NCBI GenBank assembly: GCA_049521895.1
Contig: JBEKOJ010000001.1
Coordinates: 290,717 to 354,716 of the forward strand
Direction: 5' to 3'
DNA: 64,000 nucleotides
Source of the DNA: Candidatus Saccharimonadales bacterium
Lineage (GTDB): Bacteria; Patescibacteriota; Saccharimonadia; Saccharimonadales; UBA10212
Made by a program: the position numbers and the translations under genes. Under the pieces are notes generated by a model. It made no database searches, was not told the origin of the DNA, and saw only the letters and a list, made by a program, of their open reading frames with translations. Of this stretch, positions 1,189-40,610 are shown one piece after another; within the stretch, counting starts at the first letter, position 1, and the number at the start of each line of letters is the position of its first letter.

Positions 1189-2016
1189 ATGCCGTTGCTT
1201 ACGTGGTACCGCATTATGCGCACCCTACCGGGTGTGGTGTTCGGATTTATCTTCCTCGGCGCCGGCACTTACATTGCCCTCGCCCCTGTCTCCTACCGGA
1301 ACCCCAACAACCCCAAGCTGGTCGCCTACGCCAACAGCATGCACCCAGTCGTAATTGCGATCGGCGTGATTGCCGTGCTGGCAGGACTGGGCTTCTTGTA
1401 CTTCGGAGTTACCAGGTACTTCCGGATGCCGGAATACCTTCGGGAGTTCACATACGAGCAGCTTCGGCTGGGCCGGGCTCTAGCCCGTGAGATTGTCCGG
1501 CTAACATCGGAGAAAGATTTCCACCATCGCTCCGTCAAGTACGACGATGGCTCGGAGGTTAGTCTCTCCGCCTACAGCTACTACGAACGTGGCAGGATGT
1601 CCTGGAGCCGGTCTCTGTTCTACGGATTCGGGGAGACAGTCTCGTTCACTCATGCAAAGCCGCCCACCGAAGTCGATGGAGTACTACACGTACCGGAAGT
1701 CAGGTTCCACATCGACACATTCTCGGGCAAGGGCAGCCGTCACGAATCGGTCGAGCAGTACGAGATCCGGGAGGAGCCCCCAGTCCTCGAAGGTGAGGCC
1801 GCTGAGTTCCTGAAGTTCGCAATCAGGGAAACCGGTACAAGTGAGGAGTGGGAGGAAGAGCTGGAGTCGCTCACAGAGCCCCGATTCACAACCGTCCGTC
1901 TCGATCGCGAAGTCGATGATCCCGGCGCGTACTACAGGTTCATGAGGCAGATGGGGCTGGACAAGCCCTCAGCCGAAGAACTTCGGCTGGCGCTCGATGA
2001 GCTCAAAGGATGGTGA
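1189..2016 (+). CDS. Hypothetical protein with two N-terminal TM helices and an acidic C-terminal domain; GC-rich cassette ORF
   Basis: 275-aa ORF with a strong SD. Hydrophobic stretches VVFGFIFLGAGTYIALA and VVIAIGVIAVLAGLGFLYF. No family recognised. Confidence 0.7.
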   Translation: MPLLTWYRIMRTLPGVVFGFIFLGAGTYIALAPVSYRNPNNPKLVAYANSMHPVVIAIGVIAVLAGLGFLYFGVTRYFRMPEYLREFTYEQLRLGRALAREIVRLTSEKDFHHRSVKYDDGSEVSLSAYSYYERGRMSWSRSLFYGFGETVSFTHAKPPTEVDGVLHVPEVRFHIDTFSGKGSRHESVEQYEIREEPPVLEGEAAEFLKFAIRETGTSEEWEEELESLTEPRFTTVRLDREVDDPGAYYRFMRQMGLDKPSAEELRLALDELKGW

Positions 2017-2023
2017 CGTCACA

Positions 2024-2068
2024 GCCCCGCAAGCGTTTTAATGAAGACGCTCCGCGGGGCGTCTTCAT
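2024..2068 (+). terminator. Hairpin region after cassette ORF (two mutually exclusive stems)
   Basis: One fold pairs GCCCCGC..AGCGT with ACGCT..GCGGGGC. The alternative is a perfect 10-bp stem ATGAAGACGC/GCGTCTTCAT (2041-2050 with 2059-2068) followed by ATATAT. Confidence 0.45.
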
Positions 2069-2088
2069 ATATGGCCACAGGAATTCAT

Positions 2089-2112
2089 CTAACCGGCCGC
2101 CCCTTTTGAGCG
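2089..2112 (+). repeat. Cassette-junction repeat R3
   Basis: CTAACCGGCCGCCCCTTTTGAGCG. Confidence 0.9.
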
Positions 2113-2118
2113 GATGTT

Positions 2119-2847
2119 TTGATATATAATTCGGACATGACCAAAGGTGAGGTCGAGGCGTTGGCTAAAGATGTGCTCGAAAAGATATTCAGAAATAACG
2201 AGCGCAAAGGTCTGATGGCTGTCTATCTCTGGGGTTCGATTATTACCCCAGAGTTTGATCCCGAAAACAGTGACGTAGATGCAGTTGGTATCCTCTCAGA
2301 TGAAGCCATCTTTGCGGAGTTTAATGAAATGCGTAACTGGCTCCCCTCCATCGAGCCAGGATTGAAGCGTTTGCAAATAAATTTTTTCTACTTGAGTGAG
2401 CTTATAGGCGGCCCAGTTCGCAGCAACCTAGCTCGTTTAGCAAGTCCTGAGCAAGCGGTATTTGATTTCCCATACTGGAAGCATGTCTGTGGCAAGAAAA
2501 TTGCAAGCTCGGATTTACCAAAGGTTACTGCCAAGCAAGCTCTTAAAGATCAGGTGGGGCTTACTAAGATGAGAATGGGCTGGGTAAAAGACGGTGCTTA
2601 CGGCGACATGGGTTTGGAATATTTTTGCAAGAGCCTTGTTTGGCTTTGTTATAACATCCACAAATTATCTTCGCCGCCTGAGCGTTTTTCCTGGAAGAGT
2701 CTCGATTCTGAAACGACTGACGAGACCAAAGGGATGGTAGAGGTTTTACTCGATCTCAAATCGAAGCACTGGGCTAAAGAGACTATTCGAGAACAACTTC
2801 CTTGGCTTGAACGAACCGCAAAAACTCTGATCGCAAAGTACTCCTAA
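2119..2847 (+). CDS. Nucleotidyltransferase-domain protein (ANT/AadA-like architecture)
   Basis: Minimal NTase signature G-S-x(n)-D-x-D in LWGSIITPEFDPENSDVDAVGIL. The TAA stop (2845-2847) lies inside repeat R4. The ATG at 2137 is an alternative start. Confidence 0.7.
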   Translation: MIYNSDMTKGEVEALAKDVLEKIFRNNERKGLMAVYLWGSIITPEFDPENSDVDAVGILSDEAIFAEFNEMRNWLPSIEPGLKRLQINFFYLSELIGGPVRSNLARLASPEQAVFDFPYWKHVCGKKIASSDLPKVTAKQALKDQVGLTKMRMGWVKDGAYGDMGLEYFCKSLVWLCYNIHKLSSPPERFSWKSLDSETTDETKGMVEVLLDLKSKHWAKETIREQLPWLERTAKTLIAKYS

Positions 2848-2867
2848 CCGGCCGCCCCTTTTGAGCG
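2844..2867 (+). repeat. Cassette-junction repeat R4
   Basis: CTAACCGGCCGCCCCTTTTGAGCG. Its TAA is the stop codon of the upstream ORF. Confidence 0.9.
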
Positions 2868-2911
2868 TGCTTATGCTTGCAATTTGTGGCACTCAACCAT
2901 AGTGTATTTTT

Positions 2912-3457
2912 ATGGCTAACCCAGAAAAATCTGAACTTATTGTAGAAAGATTACAAACATACACATCCAAAGACGCCGAACAGCTAGGTCTTTTAAGAAA
3001 CGCTCTTAGCTCGGACCGGTCGAGCGATGCGCTTAGCCCTAGAAGAATAGCTTTATTTACAGAGCATGAAGAACGCGCTTTGATTGCCGCAAGAGTGGCG
3101 GATTCTGGAAGAATTGTCGCCTGCGAGACTATAGCGGGCACCCCTGTATTAGAGGCAAGAGAGGAAGACTCGGATATGTTCGGCTGGTTAGGTTTTGTAT
3201 CTACCCTACCGGAAGATCGCAACCTTGGAATTGGCAAGCAAGTTGCAATCGCAGGCATGCGGTGGTGCCAAGACCTTGATATCCGAGAATTAAAATTTAC
3301 ATCCAACTCACATAACACCGAACGGGCAATAGCCAGAGCGACGTATCTAAAATATGGTGCCGTAATCGTTGCCAAGGGCGTTGGCCCAAAAGACACCGAC
3401 ATGTTCAACTGGAGCGTCCAGACTGGCCTAGAAAAACTTACAGCCGGCATTAGCTAA
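2912..3457 (+). CDS. GNAT family N-acetyltransferase
   Basis: 181 aa with an acetyl-CoA motif A-like segment (VSTLPEDRNLGIGKQVAIAGMRW). The TAA stop (3455-3457) lies inside R5. Confidence 0.7.
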   Translation: MANPEKSELIVERLQTYTSKDAEQLGLLRNALSSDRSSDALSPRRIALFTEHEERALIAARVADSGRIVACETIAGTPVLEAREEDSDMFGWLGFVSTLPEDRNLGIGKQVAIAGMRWCQDLDIRELKFTSNSHNTERAIARATYLKYGAVIVAKGVGPKDTDMFNWSVQTGLEKLTAGIS

Positions 3458-3477
3458 CCGGCCGCCCCTTTTGAGCG
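3454..3477 (+). repeat. Cassette-junction repeat R5
   Basis: CTAACCGGCCGCCCCTTTTGAGCG, immediately followed by TATAAT (3478-3483). Confidence 0.9.
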
Positions 3478-3490
3478 TATAATCCGTTTA

Positions 3491-4096
3491 GTGAGAAAGT
3501 TGAATATTCTTATCGACGAAAGTGTGACTCAGGTGGATAAAAAGTCGATAAGAGTTAGTGTATGTTGTGTTGAGTATCTAGACGATGCTATAAAAGACGA
3601 TTTACAAAAATTACAAGACTCTTTTGAAAAAGATGAAGTCAGATACCCAAAAACTGGCAAAAAGATCCACTTCAGTGAGTTAAACATTGTCCAGCAGTCT
3701 GATATTACGGAAATAATCTCTAAATCCGATATCACAGCCAAGGTCTACGTTTACTACTTCTTGGGCATGGATGAAGCGAGAGCAAAGGTCGCTGCGGTTG
3801 AGGCAACTATACACCATGTACAACTTTTACACCGAACCAGAGACATAGACATATCACTAGAGACAGCTCAAGAATATAAAAGCTCGTCCATCTCAAAATA
3901 CTTATCTGCCGAGAAAACACTCTTTATATTTCCCGATGCCATACTTAGCATCTTTTGTAACTTTCTCGGTAATCAAGACCCTAGAAAAACCGCAGTAAGT
4001 TTGCGGCTATATACGCTCATCAGAGAAAAAATTCGCTTGCAGGTTTTTCGATCGTACCCAAAGATAGAATATAATACTAGACTTCGCCGCCTCTAG
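3491..4096 (+). CDS. DUF3800-like protein, candidate retron effector
   Basis: 201-aa ORF directly upstream of the RT. N-terminal NILIDES and later KKIHFSEL resemble the DES(G) and H-x-x-E signatures I associate with DUF3800 (PF12686). This is from memory, not a search. Confidence 0.45.
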   Translation: MRKLNILIDESVTQVDKKSIRVSVCCVEYLDDAIKDDLQKLQDSFEKDEVRYPKTGKKIHFSELNIVQQSDITEIISKSDITAKVYVYYFLGMDEARAKVAAVEATIHHVQLLHRTRDIDISLETAQEYKSSSISKYLSAEKTLFIFPDAILSIFCNFLGNQDPRKTAVSLRLYTLIREKIRLQVFRSYPKIEYNTRLRRL

Positions 4097-4197
4097 ATTT
4101 GTTATACTTCCATTGCGGGGTTGTTGTTCTGCATCAGAATAACATTGTCGACCTCCAGTAAGAATATTTTTCTAGTGCAACCTCGCACTATGTTTCG

Positions 4198-5145
4198 ATG
4201 ATTCATGATTATATCGCCGTCAAGAAAGACGACTTTGATAGCTTTATCGCCAGGCCTGAAGGTTTTTTCGTACGACAAGGTAAGTTAACAAAACATAAGA
4301 ATAGATTTTCCCAAGATTCTATTTCTGTTAAATTTGACAAATTTATTTATAGTCTCTTGAGAGAATATTTAGCTGCAAAGAGACCTGATCAAGGTGCATT
4401 TGCTAGTAAATCAATTTTTCAGCTCGTACAGCCACATAAAAATTATAAGTACATACTCTGTACCGACATAAGAAATTATTTCGACAGAGTTACGTTCGAT
4501 TTAGTAAAAGAAATAATAGGTAGCAAAGAAAGTGTGTCGCGCTGCTTCCCAGAAATTCAAAAAATTTATTTTGATACTGGTCTCAGAAGGGGGCTAATCG
4601 CCTCCCCGTTATTATCCGAGGTTGTAGGACTTAAAATTGATGGTTTAATTTATCAGTTAGTAGGCGGGGTGGGACGCTCTGACTTCCACTATGCTCGATA
4701 CTATGACGATATCAGTATTTCCTCTAACGATAAGAAAAAATTAGAGCAATTATTAGCACAGTTAAGATCCCGGCTACTAAAAGAATTTGCCATGGAGCTT
4801 AAGGACAAAAAAACTTTCATAAAATTTACTCATGGGTCTAAGGTTTTGGGTCTCACTATTCACAAGGGCAACGTGGTCGTACCGGGGAAATTTAAAAACC
4901 GCTTGCGAGCCATAATGGCGGCTTATGAAACTTTACCTGAAGACGACCTTGATAGCACTTGGGATAAACTGTCTGCAGTTGGGACAATAATTGCCTCGCA
5001 TCATTACATCATCAATAACTCAGATAAAGAAACATCCGAGAAATATAGAGCTTCTATCAGTGATTACTACACCGAGCTGACGAGGTTAGAAGAATTAAAA
5101 GATCGCTTTATCCAACAAGAAGCTGGCGAGAACGCACGGCTTTAA
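4198..5145 (+). CDS. Retron-type reverse transcriptase
   Basis: 315 aa. Matches to RT motifs are LCTDIRNYFDRV (cf. xDIxxFFxSI), LRRGLIASPLLSE (cf. LPQGxxxSPxLxN) and the YxDD box YARYYDDISISS. KKTFIKFTHGSKVLGLTI corresponds to the retron VTG region. Confidence 0.85.
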   Translation: MIHDYIAVKKDDFDSFIARPEGFFVRQGKLTKHKNRFSQDSISVKFDKFIYSLLREYLAAKRPDQGAFASKSIFQLVQPHKNYKYILCTDIRNYFDRVTFDLVKEIIGSKESVSRCFPEIQKIYFDTGLRRGLIASPLLSEVVGLKIDGLIYQLVGGVGRSDFHYARYYDDISISSNDKKKLEQLLAQLRSRLLKEFAMELKDKKTFIKFTHGSKVLGLTIHKGNVVVPGKFKNRLRAIMAAYETLPEDDLDSTWDKLSAVGTIIASHHYIINNSDKETSEKYRASISDYYTELTRLEELKDRFIQQEAGENARL

Positions 5146-6846: not shown

Positions 6847-7068
6847 TGACGGGGGCCGCGAGCACCGTAGTTCGAAAAAGTTAACCGAGCCCCTAACTTT
6901 TATCCAGACTCGAGGCGAGCCTGAGCAGATGATGTGAAAAAGAGGCGCCCTTGGGTGCGAGGAATGTCTGACGAAGCTAGATTGTCGGGTGGCAATCTAG
7001 CGAGGAGTTCCGCAGCAAGCCTGTTTCTGACATCAGATGCGTCAAGTTAGCCGAATGTCTGGGAAAAG

Positions 7069-7977
7069 TCAGGGGCGAGGGTTTAAATCGTGGCCGCCGA
7101 ATTTGTTGCGCATGGCGGCAAGCAGTTTGGTGGCGAAGGTCACCTGCCCTTTTTGGCTGGCTAGCCGGACATCGAATGACTGGCGGATGGCTGGCGTGTC
7201 GATGCCGTACTGTTCGGCGACTTCCAGTGTCCAGCAGGCCTCGCCGGATTCAGCCACCCGACCGTCTATCCCCTGAAGTTCTGGGTTTTCGGCAAGAGCT
7301 TGACGTGACAGTTCGTTAAGCCAAGATGTGACCACGCTGCCGTGCTGCCAAACTTCGCCGGCGGCCGCCAAATCTAGCTCCTTATACGGGCCTTCTTTAA
7401 GCACCCGGTAGCCTTCGGCCAAGCTTTCCATCATGCCGTACTCGATAGCGTTGTGGACCATCTTGACGAAATGCCCGGCCCCGCTGCCGCCAAAATATTG
7501 GTAGGCGCCGCTGGGCTGGGCCAAGGTTTTAAGGGCCGGCTCTAACTGCTTGAACGATGCCTCATCGCCGCCAGCCATCATCGAAAAGCCATTCTTATAA
7601 CCCCACACGCCGCCGCTGGTGCCAACATCCATGAAACTACTGCCGGCGGCTTTGACCCGCTCGGCGCGGGCTTTGTCATGCCGAAAGTCCGAGTTGCCGC
7701 CATCAATTATTAAGCTGCCTTTGGGAACGAGTTTTAGCCACTCGTCCAGCTGGGCATCAATAATTTCCGCCGGCAGCATGATCCAAAGCACTACCAGCCG
7801 ACCGTCAAAGGCTGCAACAACGTCCTCTTTTTTATAAGCGGCCTTGGCTCCGTGCTTGACTGCTTCGTCAATCGGCTCAGGGCTGCGGTTATTGGCAATT
7901 ACTTCGTGCCCGCCCTCGGCCAGTTTTTGAGCAATCTGTCCGCCCATCCGCCCCAGTCCACTGATAGCTATTTTCAT
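7069..7977 (-). CDS. gnd: 6-phosphogluconate dehydrogenase, decarboxylating (short ~300-aa form)
   Basis: N-terminal Rossmann motif GLGRMGGQIA and a 6PGDH-like core (HFVKMVHNAIEYG). Confidence 0.85.
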   Translation of the reverse strand: MKIAISGLGRMGGQIAQKLAEGGHEVIANNRSPEPIDEAVKHGAKAAYKKEDVVAAFDGRLVVLWIMLPAEIIDAQLDEWLKLVPKGSLIIDGGNSDFRHDKARAERVKAAGSSFMDVGTSGGVWGYKNGFSMMAGGDEASFKQLEPALKTLAQPSGAYQYFGGSGAGHFVKMVHNAIEYGMMESLAEGYRVLKEGPYKELDLAAAGEVWQHGSVVTSWLNELSRQALAENPELQGIDGRVAESGEACWTLEVAEQYGIDTPAIRQSFDVRLASQKGQVTFATKLLAAMRNKFGGHDLNPRP

Positions 7978-8255
7978 CCCGTTAGAGCCAGGAAACGCTT
8001 GTTCCTATTTTTTAGGTAGCGTTTACCCGTTCCTGTCTTTAGATACTTTTCTCTTGCGAAGGCGTCATTCGAGTTCATACAAGCTTCATAATATATCAGC
8101 TCGTATGGACCTCGAAATTTGGTGTAAGTGGACTTTCCTGATTGATGCTGGCTTAAGCGTTTCCGTAGGTCAGACGCGCATCCCGTGTATAGCCTGCCGT
8201 TTTCGGGATTGCGAAGAACATAAACGTAAGTCATACTGGCTCTAACGGGATTCAC
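7974..8255 (-). CDS. GIY-YIG nuclease-domain protein
   Basis: YVYVLRN...GRLYTGCASDLRKRLSQH matches the GIY-YIG/UPF0213 pattern. It has 4-nt overlaps with both neighbouring genes. Confidence 0.75.
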   Translation of the reverse strand: MNPVRASMTYVYVLRNPENGRLYTGCASDLRKRLSQHQSGKSTYTKFRGPYELIYYEACMNSNDAFAREKYLKTGTGKRYLKNRNKRFLALTG

Positions 8256-32205: not shown

Positions 32206-32745
32206 CTAGATTGGCCGCCCTTGTTGCTGCGCGACCCAACCATCTGCGAGTTTCTTAATATTTAGGGTTTCCTTGTGAAGAGGGGCTAGGCCTAGATCTT
32301 TATTAACGAAAGTGTAGGTGTCTGAGGTGGGATCATAATGGCTTATGTAAACAATCCCATTGAAAGCCGCTTTTGGGCCTATATTGTATGTGCCAATGTT
32401 GTCATTGTGGTGCTTATTAACCCATTTTTGAATCTCTGTATCATAATGCTCTAAGTAATTACGAAACTTTCGATTATGAATGACCGAGGACTTTGGAATT
32501 CCAAGAACTTTCCCCATAGTTATTACTTTTGTATAGTTAGAGTACTCTACCCTGTATTCTCCTTTTAGCATTTTTGAGACCATTGCGCAGTGAGACAGAA
32601 ACGAGTGTATGGAAGTAAAAGCTGTGTCAAATTGACTCGCAGATTTTTTATTAATATTCCTGTGTGCGATGTCTGCGAAGTGAGCCTGAGTGCTGATTTC
32701 ACGGATGGATGCTTCCAGCCATGAGTTAACGATATCTATATTCAT
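32206..32745 (-). CDS. Hypothetical protein with HEPN-like R-x4-H motif
   Basis: The ORF track gives 32206..32808, but the ATG at 32745 (MNIDIVNSW...) with GAAGG upstream is more plausible. FRNYLEH fits the HEPN RNxxxH pattern. Weak call. Confidence 0.35.
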   Translation of the reverse strand: MNIDIVNSWLEASIREISTQAHFADIAHRNINKKSASQFDTAFTSIHSFLSHCAMVSKMLKGEYRVEYSNYTKVITMGKVLGIPKSSVIHNRKFRNYLEHYDTEIQKWVNKHHNDNIGTYNIGPKAAFNGIVYISHYDPTSDTYTFVNKDLGLAPLHKETLNIKKLADGWVAQQQGRPI

Positions 32746-32746
32746 A

Positions 32747-32787
32747 ATGGTTACCTTCGGTGCACTACTTGGCTGGGGAGGAGGGAT
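32747..32787. repeat. Direct repeat DR1 (displaced copy of tRNA-Gln 3' end plus flank)
   Basis: 37/41 identical to 34042-34082. Includes tggctggggaGgagggat, which is the tRNA 3' end through the T-loop. Confidence 0.75.
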
Positions 32788-34041
32788 GGTTGCTGTCGCA
32801 ACACGCACTCATCATGCTCGATGCAAGCATCTGTGCGTGACTCCTTGGCGCCCGAACCTTCCATAATATATTACCATCCGATTTTCGGACTCGCCCTATA
32901 CTAGATTACAATTCACCCCCGTCGAAGAAGATTTAAACCAAGAAAAATGCCCCGCGTATCGTCGATACTTTGCGGGACACGCCGGATTGAGTACCGGAGC
33001 TCTTTCAAGCTAGTTGTCGTACCTGTCGAGTTCTTCCTTGACCGCCTCCCTTACTTGTTGTTCCAGCATCAGGCGCTCGCGGATCAGTTGGGTCTCGGAG
33101 CCAATTTCGCGAGCTCGTGCGTTGGCGAGCTCACGGGCGATCTGCTCGTTACTTTCAGCTGCTTCGATGGATGCCTCCACCGAGAGGCTTGACGCCAGCC
33201 GCAAGAGTCCCTTGACTCGCTCGATCTCCTCGTTGACCTCGGGCGTACGGTGGAGCTGCATAAGCTCCAGCAGACGGCCGTTGAGAATCGAGACCTCGTA
33301 AGAGACCTCGGACTTGCGTTCACCCACTCGTAGCTTGGCGAGCTTCTTTTCCGTCCGCTTGCGGCCGGCTTTGCCAACCTTTTTCACGAAGGGCTTGCCC
33401 CCTGCGTTGCGGACGTAGTAGAGAGCCTTGTAGCTCGAGAACTCGCCCCAGCAGTCCGAGACGGTGGTTGCCCCCTCGCCTTCCGCCAGAAACCGGCCGC
33501 TTTCCAGCATCCTTGGCGTAACAAGAGCGCCGCTCTCGATGGCGTGGGAGTAGCGCACCCTGTAGATCTCGATAGTGCCGTCTATCAGGAGAACCATCCC
33601 TGGAGGCACGTGTGCCTTAAGCCCGAGAACTTCCTGCGAGGCGGATGTCAGCAGAGAGGTGTCTACGGGCTCGCTACCAGATGCCTGGCAGGCGCCGCCG
33701 TCGCAGTTGGTGTTTCCGTCGTTGTAGATCCAGACTGAGTTGATGCCTTGGGGGCCACCGAAATGCCTGCGACCATTGCATAGAACGGCATGGGTGATGT
33801 CACCATCCCGTCCGCGCTCAATGTTGAACATGCGGATCTCTTGACCGCTCATCTTACTCCAATCACTAAAGGTACGAAAACTACTCATATTATAGCATAA
33901 GAATAATATTCGGTCAATTTAATCAAGTAGTGTCCAAGCCCGGCCGCCCTGTTGGCATGATTGGGGCAATATTAAAGCAAACCCGAAAATGAACTTGCTT
34001 TAATCCAAAATTGCAGTATTTTGCAGATACAAATTGGCACT
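32788..34041. mobile_element. Small GC-rich islet integrated at tRNA-Gln 3' end (no integrase; remnant or satellite)
   Basis: Bounded by DR1 and DR2. Similarity stops inside the T-loop, the classic tRNA-targeting crossover position. Carries one GC-rich ORF. Confidence 0.5.
33010..33888 (-). CDS. Hypothetical protein, GC-rich, C-terminal coiled coil
   Basis: 292-aa ORF with two shadow ORFs. Composition is visibly more GC-rich than its neighbours. No family recognised. Confidence 0.6.
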   Translation of the reverse strand: MSSFRTFSDWSKMSGQEIRMFNIERGRDGDITHAVLCNGRRHFGGPQGINSVWIYNDGNTNCDGGACQASGSEPVDTSLLTSASQEVLGLKAHVPPGMVLLIDGTIEIYRVRYSHAIESGALVTPRMLESGRFLAEGEGATTVSDCWGEFSSYKALYYVRNAGGKPFVKKVGKAGRKRTEKKLAKLRVGERKSEVSYEVSILNGRLLELMQLHRTPEVNEEIERVKGLLRLASSLSVEASIEAAESNEQIARELANARAREIGSETQLIRERLMLEQQVREAVKEELDRYDN

Positions 34042-34082
34042 ATGGTCACCTTTGGTGCACTGCTTGGCTGGGGAAGAGGGAT
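34042..34082. repeat. Direct repeat DR2 (tRNA-Gln 3' end plus 23-nt flank)
   Basis: Partner of DR1. Confidence 0.75.
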
Positions 34083-34138
34083 TCGAACCCCCGATCCTGG
34101 GACCAGAACCCAGTGCCTTACCACTTGGCCATTCCCCA
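34065..34138 (-). tRNA. tRNA-Gln (anticodon CTG)
   Basis: 74-nt manual cloverleaf: acceptor TGGGGAA/TTCCCCA, D arm GCCAAGTGGTAAGGC, anticodon arm CTGGG-TTCTGGT-CCCAG, T arm GGGGG-TTCGAAT-CCCTC. CCA is encoded. Confidence 0.9.
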
Positions 34139-34279
34139 CTGATAGATAAATTATAGAACTTTAGGGTTCGAATCCCGAGGGCTTTCAACTCACGAATATT
34201 TTTCTGCTGAAAAATTTCGCGAGCCCTCCTCGCCGCCGTCGCGGCTGCGGCCTTGCGAGTTGCCGCCAGGCAACTCTCA

Positions 34280-34331
34280 CCCCGATCTGGGACTCTGAAC
34301 CTCAGTGCGCATGCCGCTTGGCCAACTCCCA
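34280..34331 (-). pseudogene. Truncated tRNA-Gln-like 5' fragment
   Basis: TGGGAGTTGGCCAAGCGGCATGCGCACTGAGGTTCAGAGTCCCAGATCGGGG parallels tRNA-Gln up to the 5' T-stem and then diverges. The anticodon arm is irregular, and no matching T-loop or acceptor 3' half was found. Confidence 0.4.
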
Positions 34332-34411
34332 TTAACCTACACTATTTTACTCTAAAGAGGGGTGATAGTCTTTGCCACTTGGCCACTTTCCAATATGGAA
34401 TATTTAAGTAT

Positions 34412-35725: not shown

Positions 35726-37384
35726 ATGGCACTGGTTTATTTTTATGACGTAACGGAACTGGACAAAAAACAGTTAAGCGCTGCGCTTGATGGGACTGAC
35801 CACCATTATGAATATGTGACAGACAAAATTGTGCCGGCCAATTGTAACCCTGAAACCGAAGCGATATCTGTGTTTGTAAGCAGTAATGTTAGTCGTGAAG
35901 TGATTGAGGCGATGCCAAAACTCAGGCTCATTGCTTGTCGATCAACCGGCTTTAACAACATCGATCTCGCGGCCGCGCAAGAACACGACGTCGCCGTTGT
36001 CAACGTCCCTACGTACGGCGAAGCAACGGTTGCAGAATATGTCTTCACATTGTTGCTGGCCTTGCAGCGCAAATTGCCTGCTGTGCTCGAAACTGAAAAA
36101 GAACAATTCTCGCTTGATGACCTAATGGGTCGTGACCTGCAAGGCAAAGTCTTCGGTGTGATAGGAACAGGCCACATTGGACAGAAAGCTTTGAAAATTG
36201 CTGATGGTTTTTCGATGAAAACTATTGCTTATGATAGTTATCCAAAAGCTGAACTCCAAAATGAATACCATTTCCAGTACGTTGGATTAGATGAATTACT
36301 GGAGCAATCCGACGTAGTGTCACTCCACGTCCCCTACCTCCCTTCGACTCACCACCTGATGAACCGCGACCGGCTTAACAAAATGAAGCGTGGCGCCATT
36401 TTGGTCAATACGGCTCGTGGCGAGCTTGTCGATACAAACGCGCTTATCGAATTACTTGATAAGGGTCAGCTGGGGGGAGCCGCCATAGACGTCATTGAAG
36501 GCGAAGCGCTACTGAGTTATCACGAAGAAATGGCTCTCCTGCGGAGTGACACACTCCCCGAAGAGGTGTTGCGCCACAGTGTCGAAATAACCGTGCTGGA
36601 ACAAATGCCAAATGTTATAATCAGCCCCCATAATGCCTTTAATACGGTCGAGGCAATTGCTCGTATAAATCAAACTACCGCCAAGAATATCATCGATTTT
36701 TGGTCTGGGAATATACCTAACAAAGTTGTGCCGGCGAAACGAGCCTTTGGAAAATTATTGATAGTTCGTCATACCGAATCGGAGTGGAATGCGACCGGAC
36801 GATGGACCGGTATCACCGATGTTCACTTAAGCGAAAAAGGCTTCAAAGAGTCAGCCATGTTGGGACTAGCCCTCAAAAAATCGGATATCCATATCGATCT
36901 TGCTTACTGTTCTGAGCAGATTCGGACACGTGAAACGCTAGAAGCTATGTTGGATACGTCACAGCAATTTGAAGTGGACATCGTCGCCAGTAACGCGCTT
37001 GATGAACGAGACTATGGAGAATATACCGGCCGGAATAAATGGGAGGTAAAAGAACTCATTGGCGAAGAGGCGTTCAATCAGATCCGTCGCGGCTGGGATG
37101 TACCAGTACCTGGCGGCGAAACCCTCAAAATGGTATATGAGCGTGTTGTTCCTTTTTATACTGGAACCGTCCTGCCGCGCTTGCGGGACGGCAAAAACAT
37201 CTTGATTGTGGCTAGCGGCAATAGCCTCAGAGCACTTATGAAATATCTAGAATCTATCAGCGACAAAGACGTCAGCCAACTGGAAATGCTCTTCGATCAA
37301 ATTATTGTGTACGACATCTCAGCCGATGGCTTACGCGCAGGTTCATCGGTTGTCCAAGTTGATAGCACGCCGCCTCACGCCTAG
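35726..37384 (+). CDS. Fusion protein: D-isomer-specific 2-hydroxyacid dehydrogenase (N) + 2,3-BPG-dependent phosphoglycerate mutase / histidine phosphatase (C)
   Basis: The N-terminal part has GVIGTGHIGQKA, NTARGELVD and SPHNAF. From about nt 36750 the sequence LLIVRHTESEWNATGRWTG matches the RHGE(S/T)xWN dPGM signature. Confidence 0.8.
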   Translation: MALVYFYDVTELDKKQLSAALDGTDHHYEYVTDKIVPANCNPETEAISVFVSSNVSREVIEAMPKLRLIACRSTGFNNIDLAAAQEHDVAVVNVPTYGEATVAEYVFTLLLALQRKLPAVLETEKEQFSLDDLMGRDLQGKVFGVIGTGHIGQKALKIADGFSMKTIAYDSYPKAELQNEYHFQYVGLDELLEQSDVVSLHVPYLPSTHHLMNRDRLNKMKRGAILVNTARGELVDTNALIELLDKGQLGGAAIDVIEGEALLSYHEEMALLRSDTLPEEVLRHSVEITVLEQMPNVIISPHNAFNTVEAIARINQTTAKNIIDFWSGNIPNKVVPAKRAFGKLLIVRHTESEWNATGRWTGITDVHLSEKGFKESAMLGLALKKSDIHIDLAYCSEQIRTRETLEAMLDTSQQFEVDIVASNALDERDYGEYTGRNKWEVKELIGEEAFNQIRRGWDVPVPGGETLKMVYERVVPFYTGTVLPRLRDGKNILIVASGNSLRALMKYLESISDKDVSQLEMLFDQIIVYDISADGLRAGSSVVQVDSTPPHA

Positions 37385-37474: not shown

Positions 37475-38095
37475 TTATTTTGAAACGTAGCCAAGCAGGC
37501 CTTTTAAAATTTCGTTCGTTACTTTGCTGCGCGATAGTGCCCCGTCAACCTCTATGAGCAAGCCTCTATCACGGTAAAATTCGATGACTGGTATGGTATT
37601 GGTTTGGAACTTTTTCAGCCTGGTTTTCAACACCACGCGGCGGTCATCTGAACGCTTACCACGGTCATGTTGAGCCTCAGCGGTCTCGGCTTCAAAACGC
37701 CGGCAGACCTCTTCCTCGGAAAGATTTAGTAAAATTACAGCTTTAAGAGGGTGTCCAGAGTCGGTCGTGGCTTTCATTATGACGGGTTCTTCACCGTGTG
37801 AGCGTCCCACCGCACTTAGCATCAATGGCTTTCCTTTAAGCTCTGGCTGCGACAAATAAGGAAGTACCATACCTAAGTAAAAATCAGATGGGACAATGCC
37901 ACCGTTAGCCATTACCTGCTTAATCTTTTCCGGATCATGGTGGCTGCGTAAAATGTCGCCGCCAGCAATGAGTACCCCGCCAAATAAATCTGCCAGTATG
38001 CGGCCCTGTGTGTTTTTGCCTGAAAACGGGCAGCCAAAAATGTTGACGGAGCCCGTACCAAGCCAATTAGCGATTATTTTTATTTCATCATTCAT
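37475..38095 (-). CDS. Adenylate kinase-family protein (divergent P-loop)
   Basis: GCPFSGKNTQ in place of GxPGxGKGTQ. GGDILRS and lid/core similarity to Adk. Confidence 0.55.
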   Translation of the reverse strand: MNDEIKIIANWLGTGSVNIFGCPFSGKNTQGRILADLFGGVLIAGGDILRSHHDPEKIKQVMANGGIVPSDFYLGMVLPYLSQPELKGKPLMLSAVGRSHGEEPVIMKATTDSGHPLKAVILLNLSEEEVCRRFEAETAEAQHDRGKRSDDRRVVLKTRLKKFQTNTIPVIEFYRDRGLLIEVDGALSRSKVTNEILKGLLGYVSK

Positions 38096-38249
38096 AAAGC
38101 CAATTATAACAGCTTAATTATGGAGGACGGGGTGTTAGCCAAGTTTTCATTTAATTTATAACTTACCAGCTAGGCTGAATGAAAAGTGCTAATGGTAAGA
38201 TAAATTGATATAATATCACCTGAAAAAGGTAACCGGATAAAAACAAAAC

Positions 38250-40610
38250 ATGTATAAATACCTTAGGCTCTTTAAAGAAATATCTATTACTGATGTGCCG
38301 CAGGTTGGCGGTAAAAACGCCTCGCTCGGCGAGATGTACCGATACCTGGCGCCCAAAGGTGTTAACCTACCAAACGGCTTTGCCACTACTGCTCAAAGTT
38401 ATTATTATTTTCTTGACCAAGCCGGTATTCGTAAGGATATCGAAAAGATTTTAGAGGGTCTAGATATCAGCAATGTAAAGGATCTAGAAAAAAGAGGCGC
38501 CAAAATCAGATCATTGATTGTGAGAGCCAAACTACCAAGAGATTTTGAACAGGAAATTAGACGGGGTTATCAAGAACTAAGCCAAACTTGTGGTAGCAGC
38601 AAATTAGTGGTGGCGGTGCGGTCATCGGCAACTGCCGAAGATTTGCCGAATGCCTCCTTTGCCGGCCAGCAAGAAACTTATCTAAATATTAAGGGTGAAA
38701 AAAATATTCTGCGCGCAACCAAGAAATGTATTGCGTCACTTTTCACCGATCGAGCCATTGTCTATCGCGTCGAGAATCACTTTGAGCATATGAAAGTAGC
38801 GCTGTCGGTTGGTATCCAACAAATGGTGGCCGTACACGCTAAAGCAGCAGGCATAATGTTCACCATTGATACCGAGTCCGGATTTAGGAACGCGGTGATC
38901 ATCAGTTCCATCTACGGATTGGGCGAGAACATCGTGCAGGGTCGGGTGAACCCCGATGAGTTCATTGTCTTCAAACCTACATTGGCAATCCTAGAAAAGA
39001 AGGTCGGAACCAAAAAAGAGAGAATGGTCTCTGTCCGCGGCAGTAAGACCAAAAATATTACCGTTACTAAAAAGGATCAGGTAAGATTTTCTATCACGGA
39101 TGAGCAGGTCAAGACCCTGGCTCGATGGGGCATGGAGATTGAGAAGCATTATGGCAAACCGATGGATATCGAATGGGCGCTTGATGAAGATGACGGCAGG
39201 TTATACATCGTACAGGCCCGGTCCGAGACCGTTCAGTCCCGGAAGGACACGAACATCATTGAGGAATACCGGATGCTTGAAAGCGGAACTATTATTGCTA
39301 GAGGGGCGAGTGTGGGTAATAAGATCGGTGTCGGCCGAGCCAACAAGATCATGAGTATCAAAAATATAAACTTGTTCAAGGCTGGCGACGTACTGGTGAC
39401 GGATATGACAGACCCGGACTGGGAGCCGATCATGAAGATAGCCAGTGCTATCGTGACCAACAAAGGCGGCCGCACCTGCCATGCCGCCATAGTCTCCCGT
39501 GAGCTTGGTATCCCTTGCGTAGTCGGTACTGGGAATGCCTCCCAAAATATCACGGACAACAGTCCTATAACCGTCAGCTGCGTCAAGGAGGACGAAGGTA
39601 TCGTTTATGAAGGGGAGCTTAAGTTCGAAATCAACCGGACCAGTGTAAAAAACCTGAAACGGCCAAAAACCAAAATCATGATGAATGTCGGCTCTCCGGA
39701 CTATGCGTTCGAGTATTCGATGATTCCGAACGACGGGGTAGGACTGGCCCGGGAGGAATTTATCATCAACTCCAGTATCAAGATCCATCCGCTGGCCTTG
39801 TTGCGATTTGATGAGGTCAAAGACAAAAAGGCTCGCGTGCAGATTTCCGACCTCACGGCCGGATATGACGACAAAGCCCAGTACTTTATCGACAAGCTGG
39901 CGGAAGGCATTGGCATTATCGGCGCTGCCTTCTATCCGAAAGATGTCATTATCCGATTTAGCGATTTCAAGACTAACGAGTATGCCGACCTTATTGGCGG
40001 CGTGCAGTTTGAACCCAAAGAAGATAACCCGATGATTGGCTGGCGGGGTGCCAGCCGCTATTACTCCGACGGATACCGGGATGCGTTTGTGCTAGAATGC
40101 AAAGCGTTCAAAAAAGCCCGGGATGGCATGGGGCTGACGAATATTAAAGGTATGGTGCCGTTCTGCCGCGATCTGACCGAAGCCAAAAAAGTCCTCGATA
40201 TCATGGAAAAGAATGGATTGAAACGGGGTGAAAATGGTTTTGAAGCCTACGTTATGATTGAAATCCCCTCAAATGTCATTTTGGCGGAGCAGTTTGCCGA
40301 GCTCTTTGACGGATTTTCTATCGGTTCAAATGATTTGACGCAGCTTACACTTGGAGTCGATAGGGATAATCGTACCGTTGCCCATATTTACGATGAAAAT
40401 AACGCGGCGGTCGAGGAGCTTATCCGGCGGGTGATTAAAGTTGCCAAAGCCAAGCATGTAAAGATTGGCCTCTGCGGCCAAGCGCCGTCAGATTATCCTC
40501 AATTTGCGCGTTTTTTGGTTGAAGCCGGCATCGACAGCATGTCACTAGCGCCGGACACGGTCGTAAAAACCACGATCGATATCAATAAAACCGAAGAAAA
40601 ACTCGGCTAG
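38250..40610 (+). CDS. ppsA: Phosphoenolpyruvate synthase (pyruvate, water dikinase)
   Basis: 786 aa. GGRTCHAAIVSRELGIPCVVG phosphohistidine region and a PEP-utilising C-terminal domain. Confidence 0.9.
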   Translation: MYKYLRLFKEISITDVPQVGGKNASLGEMYRYLAPKGVNLPNGFATTAQSYYYFLDQAGIRKDIEKILEGLDISNVKDLEKRGAKIRSLIVRAKLPRDFEQEIRRGYQELSQTCGSSKLVVAVRSSATAEDLPNASFAGQQETYLNIKGEKNILRATKKCIASLFTDRAIVYRVENHFEHMKVALSVGIQQMVAVHAKAAGIMFTIDTESGFRNAVIISSIYGLGENIVQGRVNPDEFIVFKPTLAILEKKVGTKKERMVSVRGSKTKNITVTKKDQVRFSITDEQVKTLARWGMEIEKHYGKPMDIEWALDEDDGRLYIVQARSETVQSRKDTNIIEEYRMLESGTIIARGASVGNKIGVGRANKIMSIKNINLFKAGDVLVTDMTDPDWEPIMKIASAIVTNKGGRTCHAAIVSRELGIPCVVGTGNASQNITDNSPITVSCVKEDEGIVYEGELKFEINRTSVKNLKRPKTKIMMNVGSPDYAFEYSMIPNDGVGLAREEFIINSSIKIHPLALLRFDEVKDKKARVQISDLTAGYDDKAQYFIDKLAEGIGIIGAAFYPKDVIIRFSDFKTNEYADLIGGVQFEPKEDNPMIGWRGASRYYSDGYRDAFVLECKAFKKARDGMGLTNIKGMVPFCRDLTEAKKVLDIMEKNGLKRGENGFEAYVMIEIPSNVILAEQFAELFDGFSIGSNDLTQLTLGVDRDNRTVAHIYDENNAAVEELIRRVIKVAKAKHVKIGLCGQAPSDYPQFARFLVEAGIDSMSLAPDTVVKTTIDINKTEEKLG

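Follow-up and report, generated by a model that had tools for sequence, protein, structure and literature searches.

A one-gene islet between two copies of the tRNA-Gln 3' end in a Saccharimonadales chromosome, probably a remnant of site-specific integration

How did a single gene come to lie between two copies of the 3' end of a tRNA-Gln gene? The question is raised by a 64,000-nt stretch (the window) of contig JBEKOJ010000001.1 of a Candidatus Saccharimonadales bacterium, in which a 1254-bp segment, called here the islet, separates an intact tRNA-Gln from a displaced copy of its 3' end. Bacteria of the candidate phyla radiation (CPR), among which the host is placed, have very small genomes, and their mobile-element repertoire is not well described. 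In the accepted model of Islander islands (PMC4383910), an integrating element interrupts a tRNA gene but also rebuilds it, and the fragment that is pushed away indicates the opposite border of the island. We favour an answer along these lines, and hold it as probable with a sizeable share of doubt: the islet would be a cargo-only remnant, now fixed, of an element that integrated site-specifically at the tRNA-Gln 3' end. The integration scar is of a known kind; its novelty lies in the host phylum, in the very small size and in a 280-aa protein with no assigned function.

Results and Discussion

A displaced tRNA-Gln 3' end bounds the islet

The borders of the islet are set by three features:

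34065..34138, reverse strand: intact tRNA-Gln(CTG) with encoded CCA and a U1-A72 pair (ARAGORN; Rfam tRNA, 63.3 bits)
34042..34082, reverse strand: proximal 41-nt repeat, attL-like, made of the last 18 nt of tRNA-Gln and 23 nt of trailer
32747..32787, reverse strand: distal 41-nt repeat, attR-like, a displaced tRNA 3' fragment with its trailer, 37/41 relative to the proximal copy

The repeat search returned the two copies as a direct repeat of 41 nt with 90% identity at a spacing of 1295 nt, and Hamming and BLAST scans of both strands of the window gave a runner-up of 24/41. A preliminary description, made from the sequence alone, had reported this pair and divided it into 23 nt of flank and the last 18 nt of tRNA-Gln; the first point was borne out by the search and its background maximum, the second by the ARAGORN and Rfam placement. 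The tRNA part of the proximal copy comprises the CCA, the discriminator, the 7-nt 3' strand of the acceptor stem, the 5-nt 3' strand of the T-stem and the last 2 bases of the T-loop. Immediately 5' of the repeat the sequences beside the two copies are unrelated (GGTTCGA versus AGCAACC), which places the boundary of similarity inside the T-loop, where the preliminary description had put it; the T-loop is among the sublocations at which attB sites of tRNA genes are recognised to start. The 18-mer of the tRNA 3' end was found twice at up to 3 mismatches, against 0.04 occurrences expected, and the repeat search gave no inverted-repeat partner of the 41-mer. All 4 mismatches between the 41-mers are transitions, one of which, in the distal copy, would give an A7·C66 mismatch in the acceptor stem, as expected of a copy that is displaced and unconstrained. 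The distal repeat stops 1 nt short of the ATG of the next gene (32745), a 179-aa open reading frame (ORF), and its AAGGT is positioned as the ribosome-binding site of that gene, which apparently sat directly after tRNA-Gln prior to the insertion. With a regenerated tRNA on one side and a displaced 3' fragment on the other, the anatomy is the signature of integration into a tRNA 3' end, as had been proposed.

The interior is a single gene with predicted signals of its own

The segment between the repeats was resolved into the following features:

32788..34041, reverse strand: islet interior, 1254 bp, 54.5% GC (from the sequence, by GC count)
33972..34003, reverse strand: perfect 9-bp inverted repeat TTAAAGCAA / TTGCTTTAA with a loop of 14 nt, located 5' of the promoter in the spacer that follows the proximal repeat (read from the sequence)
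33889..33917, reverse strand: predicted sigma-70-type promoter, TTGACC, 17 nt, TG-TATAAT, 11/12 consensus (promoter scan)
33010..33852, reverse strand: gene of the 280-aa protein, no family assigned, treated as cargo (ORF and homologue starts)
32979..33002, reverse strand: conserved motif GAGCTCCGGTACTCAATCCGGCGT of the 3' untranslated region, 24 nt, with a small CCGG/CCGG hairpin (kept in homologous loci)
32943..32978, reverse strand: terminator-like hairpin, outer stem CCCGC...GCGGG and inner stem GTATC/GATAC, with a T run behind it (read from the sequence)

The interior contains one real ORF, whose gene lies on the tRNA strand. The longest reading (33010-33888) encodes 292 aa; since all 13 homologues begin at its Met13, which is preceded by a GGAG Shine-Dalgarno sequence, the gene was assigned to 33852-33010, with 280 aa. 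The single GC-rich ORF of the preliminary description is therefore retained with a start moved from 33888 to 33852, and its statement that the islet has no integrase agrees with our annotation, in which the sole ORF shows no recombinase domain or fold. Homologous loci of other organisms retain the -10 box and the leader AGTTTTCGTACCTT...GGAG, the motif after the stop codon was found again in five of the comparison loci, which are designated by L numbers (L009, L015, L020, L112 and L113), and a hairpin equivalent to the terminator-like one is present in homologous loci. As these elements are conserved and the flanks beyond them are not, they outline a transferable module of ~1.0 kb, padded in the window by ~125-150 nt of unique spacer on each side. 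Judged by its predicted signals, the interior is one autonomous promoter-gene-terminator unit.

The 280-aa gene has 59.4% GC and a GC content at third codon positions (GC3) of 0.73, the highest among 18 genes compared in the window, which has 49% GC overall; the 17 others range from 0.37 to 0.65. A foreign origin of the islet is likely in view of this GC3, of the self-contained module, of the occurrence of the same family in unrelated contexts and of a synteny break with different cargo in the closest species, the last two of which are described below.

The 280-aa protein

AlphaFold predicts a beta-rich N-terminal domain, a basic stretch GRKRTEKKLAKLR and a long C-terminal helix of ~75 residues. 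Two models were computed, one for the whole protein (pLDDT 79) and one for the N-terminal domain (pLDDT 91, pTM 0.80). Cys37, His42, Cys62, Asp63 and Cys67 are invariant among the homologues, and the invariant Cys and His residues suggest a predicted metal-binding beta domain; that the protein binds nucleic acids is a guess drawn from the modelled basic region and coiled coil. No significant match was found in Pfam, PHROGs, PADLOC or NCBIfam, nor in a sequence-profile search of the PDB, and Foldseek comparisons of both models with the PDB and BFVD returned nothing convincing (best E = 0.02, TM ~0.1). No similarity to recombinase, transposase or nuclease families was found.

The family is tiny, with 14 clusters (49-66% identity) among 5.8 billion and, in an exhaustive profile search, 37 representatives among 1.84 billion. 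No homologue was present in GTDB species representatives, IMG/VR, GenBank phages or PLSDB plasmids. The islet thus offers a defined accessory gene for a very rare protein, whose fold is confidently predicted and has no match.

A proposed integration, and the present state of the islet

From the anatomy of the repeats we infer an integration event together with the loss or absence of the recombinase. A circular element with an attP containing the last 18 nt of the tRNA and ~23 nt of trailer would have recombined with the chromosomal tRNA-Gln, so that the tRNA would have been regenerated at the proximal junction (34042-34082) and the old 3' end with its trailer, including the ribosome-binding site of the 179-aa gene, would have been displaced by 1.3 kb to 32747-32787. 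The recombinase may have been deleted later or may never have been part of the unit, in which case it would have been supplied in trans by an element with a tyrosine or large serine recombinase. The empty attB junction predicted by this scheme runs from tRNA-Gln through the T-loop and a single 41-mer into TATGAATATAG of the 179-aa gene, and the predicted circular attP reads ...GCGACAGCAACC, the 41-mer and AGTGCCAATTTG.... The preliminary description had offered a decayed island or a satellite mobilised in trans: a unit without recombinase is indeed what we see, and it would fit both; no second copy, circular junction or polymorphism was seen.

The islet is fixed in the sampled population. More than 20 contigs or assemblies from several samples, with identical flanking proteins, all carry it in the same arrangement, as determined by look-ups with the exact enolase, 280-aa and 179-aa proteins, and the identical 280-aa protein has a single genomic context. 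Identical sequence is present in independent JGI and ENA assemblies, the window matching part of the JGI contig Ga0427942_000004 (769,618 bp). The metagenomes of origin are JGI 3300038418, 3300018004, 3300018005 and 3300038415 and ENA ERZ27250043 and ERZ27250189. With no nearby recombinase, no polymorphism and 10% divergence between its repeats, the islet behaves today as a fixed chromosomal gene.

The locus downstream of enolase in relatives

By enolase, the closest species representatives are metagenome-assembled genomes (MAGs) of Candidatus Saccharimonadales/Saccharibacteria, at no more than 81% identity. The order ppdk-adk-serA/gpm-eno is shared by all the Saccharimonadales relatives compared, up to the enolase stop codon, where synteny breaks off. 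In the closest species, L021 (MAG CAZLLA01, 7270-8115), enolase is followed by a degenerate tRNA-like sequence, a mazE/mazF toxin-antitoxin pair and a good tRNA-Gln-like 3' end. On either side of the mazEF pair lies a copy of an imperfect 23-nt repeat that covers the T-arm, and ARAGORN detected no intact tRNA at this locus. In the window itself, tRNA-like debris extends on the other side of the tRNA:

34139..34411, reverse strand: enolase/tRNA-Gln spacer, 273 nt, with tRNA-like debris and a GC-rich structured insert (repeat search; folding z = -3.84)

This spacer, partly homologous in L021, contains tRNA-Gln-like 5' fragments at ~34372-34392 and 34280-34332, of which the second breaks at the T-loop and runs into the GC-rich insert, and a reversed T-arm-like sequence GGGATTCGAACCC at 34164-34176. 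The insert folds far better than its shuffles, as the z score indicates. These pieces are not explained by a simple one-step att model. Taken together, the sequences suggest that the locus downstream of enolase is a repeatedly used integration site, and such a hotspot would be worth inspecting for strain-level gene flux in Saccharimonadales.

The gene family and repeat arrays in other genomes

The 280-aa family was found in at least six different contexts, including tRNA-Gln here. Members lie downstream of tRNA-Met (L005-L008 and L016-L019), between pfkB and fba (L009), upstream of recA (L112), in a repeat-punctuated accessory array (L015), on short contigs (L020, L113) and after nrdR, as discussed below. 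The tRNA-Met context contains an active integration in the same phylum: in L005 (2310-11420) a 4.7-kb island occupies the CTACCA at the very end of the tRNA, with a 6-nt core, and in L008 (7003-11420) the site is empty. This island encodes a 514-aa large serine recombinase on the reverse strand beside attL, a member of a ~513-aa family (Resolvase + Recombinase) that is widespread in Saccharimonadales; profile comparison of the 280-aa family with the island genes found no relation.

Five related ~45-nt repeats (at 7049, 7813, 8976, 10732 and 11376) span 4.4 kb downstream of the same tRNA-Met, all in the orientation of the tRNA, and no copy was found elsewhere in the 16.8 kb. The first is the right end of the recombinase island, and a repeat follows each of four single genes, namely a 125-aa ORF, a 278-aa family member, glnA and a 174-aa ORF. 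Two of the copies share 23 identical nt despite their unrelated genes, which suggests sites under constraint, beyond mere decay. In L015 (100-4260), five copies of a C-rich 35-nt repeat (TATCCCGCGCCCCAACCCCCGCCGCA...) occupy successive spacers in the same orientation and delimit one-gene units with a 326-aa ORF, NTP_transf_6, a 279-aa family member and DUF4386; the units differ widely in GC3 (values of 0.80, 0.47, 0.71 and 0.53), and a Type ISP restriction-modification gene adjoins this array. Both arrays look like integrative units that have accreted. We considered the L015 repeat as a tRNA fragment, which was not upheld, as it gave no Rfam tRNA signal. The flank of L113, examined as a second instance of the att site of the window, was downgraded to marginal because its score was reached by 2 of 200 shuffles. 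The repeats of the window, L005 and L015 are unrelated in sequence, so that the arrays support the proposed reading of the islet by analogy only.

Weighing the explanations

Several observations count against an integrated remnant. No tyrosine or serine recombinase, recombinase fragment or transposase was found in the whole 64-kb window by precomputed or fresh Pfam annotation, and the same 64 kb gave no third copy of the 41-mer and no downstream tRNA-Gln 3' fragments; the integrases and further repeat copies which the preliminary description advised looking for are thus both missing within the window. Among the best 120 homologues of the L005 serine recombinase, no ~513-aa copy is attributable to this genome. 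An empty tRNA-Gln site, a comparison likewise suggested there, was not encountered: the conspecific assemblies reachable by exact-protein look-ups are all filled, and none of the next relatives in GTDB (enolase at most 81% identical) has a tRNA-Gln at this position. Two conspecific haplotypes that are 99.7% identical, with 56 differences in 21 kb, have 0 in the islet or the repeats. The 4/41 differences between the repeats mean either that the event is old or that attP and attB were never identical. Furthermore, a family gene stands directly after nrdR in three divergent genomes (L012 7494-8837, L110 1240-2603 and L111 1342-2655), where identity is 58-68% among the nrdR proteins and 54-60% among those of the family, a similar divergence that fits long vertical residence. 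The family gene resides stably in one clade and was imported into others, and its adjacency to nrdR, the only conserved neighbourhood of the family, is a possible functional hint. Finally, the family gene is GC-richer than its neighbours in L012 too, so that composition is only moderate evidence of recent import and high GC as a proof of it was rejected. The suggestion in the preliminary description that the islet may be delivering host-like high-GC DNA presupposes a phage window and was dropped, the window being bacterial chromosome and the high GC being partly intrinsic to the family.

The islet could instead be a still-functional cassette without recombinase, akin to the cis-mobilisable elements (CIMEs) discussed below, with att sites recognised in trans by a recombinase from elsewhere in the genome or from an incoming element, Saccharimonadales stacking such one-gene cassettes at tRNA 3' ends. 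We regard this as possible, if on balance unlikely. It draws on the five ~45-nt repeats that are local to tRNA-Met in L005/L008, share one orientation and each follow a single gene, on the identity of one of them with the right end of the serine-recombinase island, on the 23 nt shared by two copies with unrelated genes, which again suggests constraint, on the one-gene units of mosaic GC3 between the 35-nt repeats of L015, and on the presence of the 280-aa family inside both arrays. Set against this, the window has a single unit with two repeat copies, no helper recombinase was found in it or among those 120 homologues, and the identical protein shows neither polymorphism nor an alternative context; the link between the three loci, whose repeats are unrelated, is one of analogy, and the L113 flank resembles the repeat of the window only marginally (2/200 shuffles). 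Improbable in our estimation is an origin that involved no site-specific recombinase at all, either through DNA uptake and homologous or homology-facilitated illegitimate recombination at the tRNA, or through a local duplication of the tRNA 3' end and its trailer. The lack of a recombinase nearby, the status of tRNA genes as the most conserved anchors between species and the several upstream tRNA-Gln-like fragments, which a simple att model leaves unexplained, would suit such an origin; however, one-sided homology-facilitated insertion gives no 41-bp direct repeat starting at a canonical attB sublocation, at the same locus the closest species likewise has cargo between partial tRNA copies, and a related lineage provides a filled/empty pair driven by a recombinase.

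On a bolder view, the 280-aa protein would act as a recombinase of a new type, making the 1.3-kb unit a minimal autonomous element targeting tRNA T-loops. The gene is alone in its unit, its family turns up in several contexts and matches no known fold, and the predicted metal-binding beta domain, basic stretch and coiled coil would be compatible with DNA binding. We nevertheless consider this very improbable: the repeats of L005 and L015 also flank the unrelated glnA, NTP_transf_6 and DUF4386, and thus belong to the arrays and not to the 280-aa protein; the gene is kept beside nrdR without repeats in three genomes, diverged about as much as nrdR; the identical protein has one context; and the protein resembles none of the recombinase, transposase or nuclease families. 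Chance similarity or an assembly artefact, lastly, is scarcely credible with 37/41 identities against a background maximum of 24/41 and with the identical sequence recovered in the independent JGI and ENA assemblies.

Relation to known systems

The islet resembles Islander islands in having a regenerated tRNA on one side and a displaced 3' fragment on the other, with identity running from the T-loop past the CCA. Its composition also differs from that of the host (the GC3 of 0.73, as moderate evidence). Islander islands, which mostly have tyrosine integrases, differ from the islet, which has no integrase, a length of 1.25 kb, one gene, repeats diverged by 10% and no known empty site. CIMEs are recombinase-less units bounded by such repeats (PMC5704250); like them, the islet keeps attL and attR without integration or transfer genes, and CIMEs are expected where other elements accrete. 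Unlike in CIMEs, no related integrase-bearing element stands in tandem or in the window, mobilisation of the islet is putative, and the host belongs to Saccharimonadales (CPR), in which the present analysis documents no conjugative elements.

Some of the ssrA islands of Dehalococcoides have no integration module, and these islands combine T-loop insertion with a large serine recombinase, DsiB (PMC3146451). The islet shares with them a small genome, delimitation by copies of a t(m)RNA 3' end downstream of the gene and insertion in the T-loop, and many of these islands also lack an integration module and were proposed to be cis-mobilisable or fixed; the L005 locus has their layout, with the recombinase on the reverse strand beside attL. 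The islet differs in its target, tRNA-Gln, in a repeat of 41 versus 20 bp, in being a single one-gene unit and in the absence of a serine recombinase from the window. From the L005-type serine-recombinase island it differs by the lack of the ~513-aa recombinase in the window and by a 41-nt repeat that starts in the T-loop, as opposed to the 6-nt CTACCA core. Islands of Prochlorococcus contain degenerate elements and scattered partial tRNAs (10.1101/2020.12.28.424599), and tycheposon remnants there are likewise the result of successive integrations, which left partial copies of tRNAs and cargo without recombinase in the tRNA-anchored islands of a streamlined genome; in contrast, no tycheposon hallmark gene (recombinase, primase/helicase or capsid-interference genes) was found in our case, and the phylum is unrelated. 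The likeness to integron cassettes is one of outline, in one-gene units between recombination sites, stacked in one orientation in L005 and L015. Unlike these cassettes, the islet has its own predicted promoter (11/12), no attC-type imperfect palindrome, no IntI or attI, and a repeat that lies within a tRNA gene.

These comparisons raise the speculative and quite unlikely idea that Saccharimonadales operate a tRNA-anchored gene capture, in which recombinase-less one-gene cassettes, each with a conserved terminal site of 35-50 nt, are stacked at tRNA 3' ends and the recombinase is encoded elsewhere. The recombinase may be, for example, the ~513-aa large serine recombinase, the site being tRNA-3'-like in the window and in L005; the islet may then be the one-cassette case, and the L005/L008 and L015 arrays fuller cases. 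If true, the system would amount to an integron-like platform that relies on another recombinase and another type of site. The islet alone is a routine integration scar, and the possible cassette arrays of the relatives are more valuable, being the only lead to something newer. With integration as the favoured explanation, the locus would indicate that the usual tRNA-targeted route operates in CPR bacteria and that it can leave behind a single foreign gene with putatively full expression signals.

Chromosomal neighbourhood

The window is a piece of Saccharimonadales chromosome, with genes for ATP synthase, the pentose-phosphate pathway, enolase, PPDK, a ligase and murein. A phage origin of the window was rejected on this bacterial gene content, and no phage or satellite hallmark genes or viral homologues were found for the islet in PHROGs, IMG/VR, GenBank phages and plasmids. 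The distal repeat is flanked by:

32206..32745, reverse strand: 179-aa ORF, 40.6% GC, GC3 0.43, >250 homologues at <=60% identity, no domain

This ORF is probably older accessory DNA. Some gene callers run it through the distal repeat to give 200 aa (cluster P0051; 32206-32808), and the peptide PQPSSAPKVTI of this longer reading is also 'encoded' by the proximal repeat within the tRNA; the extension is an annotation artefact of the duplication.

Between the two haplotypes mentioned above, 47 of the 56 single-nucleotide differences are grouped in two tracts (35962-36343 and 38047-38960), within serA/gpm and the start of ppdk, which suggests recent recombination imports. The only mobile-type gene of the window, unrelated to the tRNA-Gln locus, encodes a 315-aa reverse transcriptase (RVT_1, 4198-5145) in a low-GC patch (38-46%) at 1189-5145. 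Four ORFs precede it there, of which one has a weak GNAT match below threshold and the other three match no domain, and the patch could be a retron-like or defence-associated reverse transcriptase island.

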